A program made the position numbers and the translations under genes. A DNA stretch of 64,000 nt from assembly GCA_050633205.1 (NCBI GenBank), contig JBOEGA010000019.1, positions 5,711 through 69,710 of the forward strand, written 5' to 3'. Below the pieces are notes generated by a model. The model was not told the origin of the DNA and ran no database searches. It saw nothing but the letters and a program-made list of their open reading frames with translations. This DNA comes from Methyloligellaceae bacterium (GTDB lineage: Bacteria; Pseudomonadota; Alphaproteobacteria; Rhizobiales; CBDHHC01). The stretch's first letter is position 1; every line of letters begins with the position of its first letter. This document shows, piece by piece, positions 12,509 through 35,818 of this stretch.

Positions 12509-12760
12509 ATGAGCATCCCTCTTTCAATTGCCATATATTTCATCTGTTGGTGGATGGTTCTTTTTATGATCCTCCCTATCGGGACAAGAACTCAAAGGGA
12601 AGAGGGGGAGGTGCTGGAAGGTACACCGGAGAGTGCTCCTGTTAACCCTCAGATCTGGAAGAAAGTGATTATAACAACAGTTGTATCTGCTTTCGTATTT
12701 GTCGGGGTTTATGCTGTTATTGTATTTAGAGTAATTGATATTAATAAATTCCCGTTGTAA
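12509..12760 (+). CDS. DUF1467 family membrane protein
   Basis: AIYFICWWMVLFMILPIG...GTPESAP pattern; usual neighbour of rnj in Hyphomicrobiales; AGGAG SD. Confidence 0.85.
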   Translation: MSIPLSIAIYFICWWMVLFMILPIGTRTQREEGEVLEGTPESAPVNPQIWKKVIITTVVSAFVFVGVYAVIVFRVIDINKFPL

Positions 12761-13342
12761 GTGAATTTCATGTCACAAAAGAACTTTCTTTATCTTACAG
12801 TACTATCTGAAGGCCTGCTGCTGTGTACTGCTATTATTTTAGCTTGGTATTTTAGCATTCCTTTATGGTCACGGATCAGCATTGAACTGACAGACGTTTC
12901 TTTGGGGGTAGCTGTCGCGCTAGCGATGGCTATATTTGCGATCTGGGCACTAAAGTCTGATCTGGCCTTGTTCTCGCAACTTAAAAAGGATACCCGGCAT
13001 GTGGTCAGGCTTTTGCAGGATTTTGGCATAGCGCCCATTCTTTGTGTATCAATGGCTGCCGGTCTTTGTGAGGAACTGCTATTTCGCGGGGTTTTTCAGA
13101 TATTATTTACAGACTGGTTCGGTTTGTCTGCGGGTCTGGTCCTTGCTTCTTTTTTCTTTGGCCTGGCTCATATGATATCTCTGAGCTATGTGATTTATGT
13201 CTCAATATTTGGCCTTGCCCTTGGGTGTATGTATGTCTGGACAGGTAACCTTCTTGGACCAATTATTGCTCACTTTTTATATGATCTGATTATGCTTTAC
13301 TGGGCTGTGCGTATTCAATGGCCAGCATCTGGTCGGCAGTGA
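12761..13342 (+). CDS. CPBP (CAAX/Abi) family intramembrane metalloprotease
   Basis: EELLFRG, FGLAH and AHFLYD motifs in a multi-TM protein. Confidence 0.88.
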   Translation: MNFMSQKNFLYLTVLSEGLLLCTAIILAWYFSIPLWSRISIELTDVSLGVAVALAMAIFAIWALKSDLALFSQLKKDTRHVVRLLQDFGIAPILCVSMAAGLCEELLFRGVFQILFTDWFGLSAGLVLASFFFGLAHMISLSYVIYVSIFGLALGCMYVWTGNLLGPIIAHFLYDLIMLYWAVRIQWPASGRQ

Positions 13343-13415
13343 GTTGCCGACAAAGTTTTCATAATATGATAAGGTTTAGCATTATATTCTCCAACAGGAT
13401 TTGGAGTGCAAACCT

Positions 13416-14624
13416 ATGCATCGGAAATTTAATACATTTATTGAAAGTCAGCTGGATCAGATACGCAGCAAAGATCTATATAAAGCTGAGCGAAATCTTA
13501 TTTCTCCGCAGGCTGGGCATATAAAGGTTTCTACCGGAGAGCAGGGTGCCCGGAATGTAATCAACCTTTGAGCAAATAATTATCTTGGTCTGGCAAATGA
13601 CAGCAGGCTTATTAATGCGGCAATAAACTCTCTTCAAAGTGATGGCTATGGTATGGCCAGCGTTCGCTTTATCTGTGGTACGACTGATAACCACAGAAAA
13701 CTTGAAAAAAAGCTGGCTGAGTTTCTTGGTAAAGATGATGCAATATTATACGCGGCCTGTTTTGATGCCAATGGAGGGCTTTTCGAACCATTGCTGGGAG
13801 ATCAGGATGCTATTATATCAGATGCTCTAAACCATGCATCACTGATAGATGGTATTCGCTTGTGCAAGGCGCGTCGGTATCGCTATTCAAATTCTGATAT
13901 GGATGAACTGGAAAGTCGGCTGAAAGAAGCAAGAGAGAATGGCTCCAGGTTCATTATGATTGTTTCTGACGGCGTATTTTCAATGGATGGGTACATAGCT
14001 AATCTGCCGGAAATATGTAAGCTGGCGGAGCAGTATGAGGCTTTGGTAATGATAGATGACTGTCATGCCACGGGTTTTATGGGGTCTAATGGTGCAGGTA
14101 CACCAGATCATTATAGTCTGGTTAGTCAAGTTGATATCCTAAGCGGAACACTAGGTAAAGCTCTCGGGGGAGCTGTTGGCGGATATGTTGCCTCCTCTCA
14201 ACCTATAATTGATATGCTCAGGCAGAGGTCCCGGCCCTATCTGTTTTCCAATTCTTTACCTCCTTCTATTGTTTCTGCAGGCCTCACAGCAATAGATATT
14301 GTTAGCCAGGATGATAGCTTAAGGCGTAAATTATTCAACAACAGTTGCTACTGGAGGAGCGGACTGGAGAAACTTGGCTTTAACATCCTGCCTGGAGAGC
14401 ATCCAATTGTCCCTGTAATGTTAGGAGAAGCAACTGTTGCTCAGGATATGGCCAGAGGGCTTTTTAACAAAAATATATATGTCAGTGGGTTCTTTTTTCC
14501 AGTTGTACCAAAAGGTCAGGCAAGGATCCGCACCCAGATGAATGCGAGCTTTACTCAGTCTGATCTGGACACTGCACTATCTGCTTTTGAAGAGGTAGGT
14601 AAAAAGCTGGGAATTATATCATGA
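13416..14624 (+). CDS. kbl: glycine C-acetyltransferase (2-amino-3-ketobutyrate CoA ligase) with in-frame TGA at 13569-13571; either recoded or a pseudogene
   Basis: From ATG 13416 (GGAG SD): [26 protein letters not shown]...[12 protein letters not shown]...[13 protein letters not shown] continues in frame into the listed 13653 ORF ([24 protein letters not shown]); upstream of tdh. Confidence 0.9.
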
Positions 14625-15667
14625 GCAGAATGATGAAGGCGCTTGTAAAGACATCTAAAGGTGCAGGTCTTTCATTAATAGATATGCCTCTTCCTGCGCC
14701 GGGAGCTGAAGAAGTTATTATTAAAATCAGTAAAACCGGTATATGTGGAACAGACCTGCATATCTGGAACTGGGATGAATGGGCTGCAAAAACAATTCCT
14801 GTGCCATTAACAATAGGCCATGAATTTTCAGGTGAAATTGCTGAATTAGGCTCAGAAGTACGAAACCTTCAACGAGGACAACGGGTCTCGGGGGAAGGGC
14901 ACCTTATAGGAGATAAAAGCAGGGCTGTAAGAGCAGGCAGGTTTCACTTGGATCCTGAAACCAGGGGTATTGGTATTAATGTACCCGGGGCCTATGCGCA
15001 GTATTTAAAATTACCTGCTTTTAATGTGGTTCCACTACCTGATGAGATCGATGATGAAACTGGCGCAATTCTGGATCCACTTGGCAATGCAGTGCACACA
15101 GCTCTTTCTTTTGATCTGGTTGGGGAAGATGTATTAATTACAGGGGCTGGTCCAATTGGCATTATGGCTGCCTGTGTTGCGCGTCATGTTGGAGCACGTC
15201 ATATTGTTATTACAGATGTAAATCCTGATCGTCTTGATCTTGCAGGCAGGGTTTGTGATGCCATTCCTGTAAATATCAATCAGGAAGATTTAAAAACTGT
15301 TATGGATACTATTGGGTTAAGGGAAGGTTTTGATGTAGGGCTGGAAATGAGTGGTGCTCACAATGCCTTTAATAATATTGCTGATGTTATGGTTATGGGA
15401 GGGCATATAGCAATTCTTGGTATTCCTGACGGGGAGTCAACCATAGACTGGTCCAAGGTTGCCTTAAAGGCTCTGACTATCAAAGGCATATATGGTCGGG
15501 AGATTTTTGAGACCTGGTACAAAATGATTTCCCTGCTACAGAATGGGTTGAATGTACGTAAAATTATAACGCACCGCCTGCCTGCAAATGATTACGAGAA
15601 GGGGTTTTCTATTATGTCGTCTGGACAATGTGGTAAAGTTGTTATGGATTGGCTGGATGTGAGTTAA
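14621..15667 (+). CDS. tdh: L-threonine 3-dehydrogenase
   Basis: [48 protein letters not shown]; ATGA overlap with kbl. Confidence 0.94.
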
Positions 15668-15769: not shown

Positions 15770-16150
15770 ATGGCTCTTATTGTTTGCATTGAAGATGTTG
15801 AAGATTTCAGAGAAGTTATTACCTATGAACTTGAAAAGGCCGGGCATAAAGTTATTGAGTGTACAAATGGTAATGAAGGCCTCGAAGTTATTCATAAAGA
15901 AGAACCGGATCTGATTATCAGTGATGTTATGATGCCTAATATGAGTGGTCTTGAATTGCTCATAAAATTACGGTCAAGTGAAGGTACTGCTTCAAATACG
16001 CCTATTATCATTATGTCAGCATCCACGCATCAGCATTATGAGGAAGAAGCGTTGAAATACGGCGCATTTGAATATTTATTAAAGCCAATTAACTGGGATA
16101 ACTTTCTATTTTCAGTACGACGTGCACTGGATAGCAGGGTCGTAACCTGA
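15770..16150 (+). CDS. single-domain response regulator (receiver only)
   Basis: IED, PDLIISDVMMP, IIIMSA, KP motifs; no output domain. Confidence 0.9.
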   Translation: MALIVCIEDVEDFREVITYELEKAGHKVIECTNGNEGLEVIHKEEPDLIISDVMMPNMSGLELLIKLRSSEGTASNTPIIIMSASTHQHYEEEALKYGAFEYLLKPINWDNFLFSVRRALDSRVVT

Positions 16151-35183: not shown

Positions 35184-35818
35184 GCAATGAACATTGTTGG
35201 CTTCAGGTTACTTCCGGGCGTGGACCTGTTGAATGTCAAAGAGCCGTTCTTAAAGTTGCAGAGAAGATTGTTGAAGAAGCGACTTCTCAGGGTTTTAATG
35301 CCAAAACTATTGAAGTCCTTGAAGGCGAAAAAAGAGGGACGGCATTGTCGGCTTTGATATCCGTTTCCGGCTCAGGCCTTTCTCAGTTTACCAGACAGTG
35401 GAAAGGAAGTGTGCTCTGGATTTGTCAAAGTCCTTATCGGCCAAACCATAAGCGTAAAAACTGGTTTGTTGGTGTTGATGTTATAACACCACTGGAAGAC
35501 AGGGAAATAAATATTAGTCCAAAGGATCTGACTATTGAGGTCTTTCGCTCATCGGGTCCGGGTGGTCAGCACGTCAATACGACGGACAGTGCTGTTCGGA
35601 TCAAACATAAACCAAGCGGAATAATGGTTGTTTCAGAAGCTGAACGTTCTCAGCATATGAATAAGAAACTGGCGATTGTCCGTCTGACTGAAAAACTGGC
35701 GGCTATTCAGGATGAGAGAAAAAAGGGTGTGAAAAAGGATCAGTGGGATCAGCACAATACACTTCAGCGAGGAGATGCATTGAGAGTATTTGAAGGCAGA
35801 TCATTTCGTGAGAAATAA
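35180..35818 (+). CDS. prfH: peptide chain release factor H
   Basis: LQVTSGRGPVEC, WICQSPYRPNHKRKNWFVG, RSSGPGGQHVN. Confidence 0.94.
   Translation: MSNEHCWLQVTSGRGPVECQRAVLKVAEKIVEEATSQGFNAKTIEVLEGEKRGTALSALISVSGSGLSQFTRQWKGSVLWICQSPYRPNHKRKNWFVGVDVITPLEDREINISPKDLTIEVFRSSGPGGQHVNTTDSAVRIKHKPSGIMVVSEAERSQHMNKKLAIVRLTEKLAAIQDERKKGVKKDQWDQHNTLQRGDALRVFEGRSFREK

Follow-up and report, generated by a model that had tools for sequence, protein, structure and literature searches.

The stretch of DNA analysed here (64,000 nucleotides, hereafter the window) contains a kbl gene, encoding glycine C-acetyltransferase (2-amino-3-ketobutyrate CoA ligase), which opens a kbl-tdh pair for threonine catabolism and has a single lesion (Table 1). 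Inspection of the plus strand places the start codon of kbl at 13416-13418, followed by 51 sense codons ending in NVINL, by a premature TGA as codon 52 and then, in the same frame, by ANNYLGLA. From codon 53 onwards the frame remains open until the terminal TGA, and full read-through would give a protein of 402 amino acids. The initial annotation had described this arrangement, from the ATG with its GGAG motif and the 51 Kbl-like codons to the TGA and the in-frame remainder lacking any other lesion, and all of it is present in the sequence. Under translation table 11 the list of open reading frames at kbl holds only the entries 13401-13571 (56 amino acids) and 13653-14624 (323 amino acids), and the Kbl frame is interrupted by the TGA in codon 52, so that a gene which is kbl by descent is broken in this allele.

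Table 1. Features of the kbl-tdh locus, with positions given in the numbering of the window.
Feature	Position	Strand	Remarks
GGAG Shine-Dalgarno-like motif	13403..13406	+	9 bases before the kbl ATG; read from the sequence
kbl codons 1-51 (N-terminal stub)	13416..13568	+	N-terminal alignment with 10 orthologues
Premature TGA, codon 52, at the invariant Cys	13569..13571	+	Position 13571 polymorphic: A (window, X1, X3) or T (X2)
Proposed SECIS-like hairpin	13572..13618	+	Drawable; stability not above that of shuffles; identical in the TGT strain
Remainder of kbl, codons 53-402, and terminal TGA (14622-14624)	13572..14624	+	No further lesion
tdh (L-threonine 3-dehydrogenase)	14621..15667	+	Intact; start overlaps the kbl stop (ATGA)

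The identity of the gene is evident from its read-through translation, which matches the glycine C-acetyltransferase equivalog NF005394 with 624.6 bits (cut-off 460) over 1-401 of 403 residues and TIGR01822 with 594.1 bits (cut-off 493) over the full length, while the neighbouring tdh product matches NF003808 with 513.9 bits (cut-off 380). Both an equivalog match above the curated cut-off and the pairing with tdh thus place the read-through product in the Kbl family. The locus shares with other kbl-tdh operons the full-length Kbl match and a tdh gene directly downstream with overlapping stop and start codons, but differs from them in that codon 52 is TGA instead of Cys, so that table 11 splits the gene into a 51-codon stub and a 323-residue open reading frame devoid of start context. 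Upstream of the pair, the frame at 12761-13342 (plus strand) resembles CPBP-family intramembrane proteases through weak matches only, all of them under the cut-off, and no NCBIfam family matches the 83-residue open reading frame at 12509-12760. Downstream, the frame at 15770-16150 (plus strand) encodes a response-regulator receiver domain that stands alone.

The first survey of codon 52 comprised 40 related genomes together with that of the window, and gave Kbl-level matches in 10 relatives, the other 30 having only paralogues at ≤35% identity. Cys precedes ANNYLGL in all ten aligned orthologues, encoded by TGC in six and by TGT in four, and the proposal that the TGA has taken the place of a conserved Cys is therefore correct; Cys is the ancestral residue at this position. 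The identity of the Kbl of the window to its orthologues is 54-66% in this set and reaches 70% in a survey of the phylum, where the 402-residue query was run against 401 genomes, including the window's own, and matches were taken at E ≤ 1e-100. This second survey yielded 93 Kbl matches in 92 of the 401 genomes, and only one of the 93 has an internal stop, namely that of the window itself. Occurrence of an independent TGA at codon 52 in relatives, which the initial annotation had named as a check of its proposal, is accordingly lacking among these matches, and so is an internal stop in any other Kbl. Apparent internal stops in the kbl genes of three genomes (TGA in G032, TAA in G002 and TGA in G018) were rejected, as they proved on alignment to be the terminal stop codons.

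With regard to the relationships of the protein, the closest intact Kbl sequences (63-70% identity, family f49) belong to the same class but to another order, and the best Kbl matches inside the window's own order and family have 64-66% identity. This distribution may be due to sampling or to an ancient transfer of kbl together with tdh.

An in-frame UGA at a position where homologues have Cys is also a property of bacterial selenoprotein genes, in which an fdhF-type UGA and a SECIS element are decoded via SelA, SelB, SelC and SelD. The initial annotation suggested that the TGA in kbl is read as selenocysteine, which would make Kbl a new selenoprotein family and the hairpin directly downstream of the TGA its SECIS element. 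The position of the UGA at a Cys that is invariant in ten of ten orthologues is in line with this suggestion, as is a kbl gene that has no other lesion, while the lack of an internal stop in any of the other Kbl sequences of the phylum survey speaks against it. The stem-loop itself can be drawn at roughly the right spacing, with the pairings GCA/TGC, AATAA/TTATT, CTTG/CAGG and GTC/GAC and the loop TGGCAAAT at 13591-13598, 19 nt past the TGA. The geometric criteria for bacterial SECIS elements that the initial annotation invoked are loose.

While the pairings, the loop and the spacing of the hairpin are as they had been described, the significance attached to them as SECIS-like is not supported by the folding energies. 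The minimum free energy of the 57 nt from 13569 to 13625 is -8.8 kcal/mol compared with a mean of -9.89 for shuffled sequences (z = +0.44), and 132 of the 200 shuffles reach the same or a greater stability; the surrounding 121 nt are even less structured than every one of 200 shuffles (z = +2.59). The corresponding 57-nt stretches of the ten relatives that encode Cys have energies from -7.9 to -19.8 kcal/mol, making the hairpin of the window the second weakest of 11, in a comparison that favours the relatives through their higher G+C content. No Rfam family matches the region 13350-13800 at E ≤ 10, and the bases of the hairpin are identical between the TGA allele and the TGT allele described below. 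The hairpin is no more than what is expected by chance.

According to the main texts of two recent sources (PMC12013277, PMC13326102), bacterial insertion of selenocysteine requires a SECIS element, SelA, SelB, tRNA-Sec and SelD, and the former of these texts regards SelB as the signature of the selenocysteine trait and classifies as users of selenocysteine those genomes that have SelB, or SelA together with SelD. The genome to which the window belongs (4.61 Mb in 243 contigs, 95.05% complete, with approximately 5% unassembled) has none of the three proteins. In the profile searches, selA gave no match; the best selB-like match (TIGR00475, 189.2 bits, cut-off 242.25) is restricted to the GTPase part and represents EF-Tu (544 bits); and the best selD-like match (59.6 bits, cut-off 125) is ThiL (239.1 bits). 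The sole match to the tRNA-Sec family RF01852 above the threshold (48.4 against 47 bits) is identified by ARAGORN as tRNA-Leu(taa), and the matches next in rank are tRNA-Ser and tRNA-Leu. None of the 36 tRNAs that ARAGORN detects in the whole genome has the anticodon tca, which taken alone is weak evidence given that the tRNA set is incomplete, those for Trp, Ala and Ile being among the ones missing. The missing part of the set is probably unassembled, the neighbourhoods of rRNA operons being the likely location.

The result obtained for this genome is repeated in its relatives, since selA, selB and selD also stay under their cut-offs in a genome of the same genus (G001, 100% complete) and in a complete genome of the same family (G002). 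That the selA search works is seen from the two genomes, out of 41 of the order, in which selA was found at 557-563 bits, neither of them belonging to this family, and the selB control search passes its cut-off in two of 14 named genomes. The unassembled 5% and the gaps in the tRNA set leave some space for selenocysteine, but its decoding would need the whole of the machinery to reside in that 5%. In contrast to bacterial selenoprotein genes, the present locus thus occurs in a genome in which SelA, SelB and SelD are missing and no tRNA-Sec was found in the incomplete tRNA set, the structure after the TGA is at chance level, and the TGA is unique among relatives. We consider it exceedingly improbable that kbl encodes a selenoprotein, and the central proposal of the initial annotation is not supported. 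Of the outcomes which that annotation had listed as speaking decisively against its proposal, two were observed, namely a genome in which selABC was not found and relatives that share neither the TGA nor a conserved hairpin.

The same ARAGORN analysis detected a permuted, two-piece tmRNA with the tag ANDNNIAPAAVAA on another contig of this genome, outside the window (C117:2062-2405, minus strand). Such a permuted form is characteristic of the tmRNAs of Alphaproteobacteria and of a small number of other groups.

A change of the genetic code, with TGA as a sense codon, was rejected. The gene for release factor RF2 (prfB) is present (517.7 bits, cut-off 370), and TGA closes 494 of the 1,892 crude stop-to-stop frames of at least 300 codons, about a quarter, and kbl itself. 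The window also has a frame for peptide chain release factor H (prfH, TIGR03072) at 35186-35785 on the plus strand (238.5 bits, cut-off 166.65), which came third among the prfB-like matches of the genome.

The allelic state of codon 52, which gave the deciding result, was studied in Logan contigs from four DNA runs (X1-X4), all from one study and with no RNA run among those listed, which were compared with positions 13000-15000 of the window; a further run (X5), with 0.05 of the sampled words, was left out of the contig comparison. Base 13571 is A, as in the window, in two of the contigs, that of X1 (word depth 6.08) and that of X3 (word depth 4.31), and T in the contig of X2 (word depth 13.3), where codon 52 is consequently TGT and encodes Cys. 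Among the three runs that cover the site (X4 does not), TGA is therefore found in two and TGT in one, figures that come from one study, with low depth (4-6) for the TGA, with X1 as perhaps the assembly's own source and with minor variants hidden in contigs. The X2 contig has only three differences from the window in 1,019 bases (approximately 99.7% identity). Besides position 13571 these are an A>G difference at 13450, which changes Gln12 to Arg at a variable position (with the frame read by eye), and a synonymous T>C difference at 13514.

The X2 run also yields two contig variants over positions 13989-14157 in kbl, one of them without any difference from the window (depth 5.7) and the other with seven differences (depth 6.38), so that the X2 sample must contain two strains or more.

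The TGT in the near-identical X2 contig could be taken to mean that the real genome has TGT and that the TGA is an error of sequencing or assembly, and the low depth at which A is read, together with X1 being possibly the sample from which the window derives, would be compatible with this explanation. However, separately assembled contigs from the runs of two different samples both have A at 13571, and the two additional differences close by identify the X2 contig as that of a different strain and not as a corrected copy. An error is on these grounds very unlikely. Because the contigs of both X1 and X3 have A, the TGA is not a sequencing error of a single assembly; it exists in the DNA of two samples or more, hence an allele which is not vanishingly rare. 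Since the near-identical strain in X2 has TGT, the change is specifically TGT>TGA, and the ancestral TGT survives in that strain. The read support at 13571 that the initial annotation wished to see confirmed is thereby divided, with the TGA backed by X1 and X3 and the X2 strain having TGT. Of the more mundane explanation offered there as a fallback, a one-base change from TGY to TGA that is either a nonsense mutation or a sequencing error, the first half stands and can now be given as TGT>TGA, whereas an error confined to one assembly does not agree with the contigs.

Overall, our data make it very probable that the TGA in kbl is a very recent, strain-level nonsense allele, produced by the one-base change from TGT (Cys52) to TGA, and that the strain of the window is a loss-of-function variant with respect to kbl. 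A TGT>TGA transversion would create the premature stop in codon 52, ribosomes would terminate at the UGA through RF2, presumably with good efficiency, and a stub of 51 amino acids would be formed. The mutation would then segregate as one allele in the natural population, with kbl as a pseudogene at birth. The 323-residue internal open reading frame from ATG 13653 would not be expected to give a working enzyme, and the loss of kbl would be tolerated because the pathway appears dispensable in the lineage. The lack of a second lesion in kbl would be due to the very young age of the loss-of-function allele, although continued selection on the gene would fit it as well.

Of the bacterial stop codons, UGA is generally the most leaky, and a leaky stop would be compatible with the nonsense allele proposed here, in that a low Kbl activity could persist through near-cognate read-through or through re-initiation at ATG 13653 and make the allele a hypomorph and not a null. 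The intact rest of the frame would permit the former, and the in-frame ATG 13653, which opens the 323-residue frame, the latter. On the other hand, RF2 is present, neither GGAG nor AGGA is seen on inspection just upstream of ATG 13653, and a product starting there would be devoid of the first 79 residues, including the CANNYLGL block that is invariant in 11 of 11 aligned sequences. We regard residual Kbl activity of this kind as very unlikely.

It is highly improbable that the TGA allele is maintained, whether through a selenocysteine-independent read-through of UGA that sets Kbl at a tuned low level or through an adaptive loss of kbl with tdh left intact. In the first case, read-through by a near-cognate tRNA-Cys or tRNA-Trp would give the low, tuned level of Kbl, and in the second case 2-amino-3-ketobutyrate could, for example, be diverted to aminoacetone and pyrazine products.

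The threonine pathway seems to be dispensable in this lineage, because the complete genome from the same genus has orthologues of neither gene: its best match to Kbl is at 9.8e-57 with 32% identity, and its best match to Tdh reaches 100.7 bits against the cut-off of 380. In the genome from the same family (G002) and in a more distant one (G032), kbl adjoins tdh.

In comparison with nonsense pseudogenes and segregating loss-of-function alleles of bacteria, the locus has in common a stop made by one base, no recoding machinery, an intact allele at a distance of 3 in 1,019 bases, and a pathway which is absent from a sister species. Its sole oddity with respect to ordinary nonsense alleles is that the stop falls on a conserved Cys and so mimics the Cys/Sec signature. 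The locus is thus of an ordinary and already known kind, and nothing suggests that Kbl should be called a selenoprotein. In the literature searched, no report links Kbl and selenoproteins in its title or abstract. Terms related to Kbl are absent from the main texts of deep-Sep (PMC12013277) and BSepDB (PMC13326102), whose supplementary family lists could hold a Kbl entry.

A stop at a conserved Cys, followed by a drawable hairpin, is exactly the kind of pattern that generates false selenoprotein calls, and in the present case three cheap checks were decisive, namely the selenocysteine machinery of the genome, the codon in relatives and the other strains in the reads. In annotation, the gene should be labelled as a pseudogene or a nonsense allele of kbl, instead of calling the 323-residue open reading frame from 13653. 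For the organism the biological weight of the finding is small, as it concerns a single, young loss-of-function allele, in an environmental bacterium, of a catabolic gene that is accessory.
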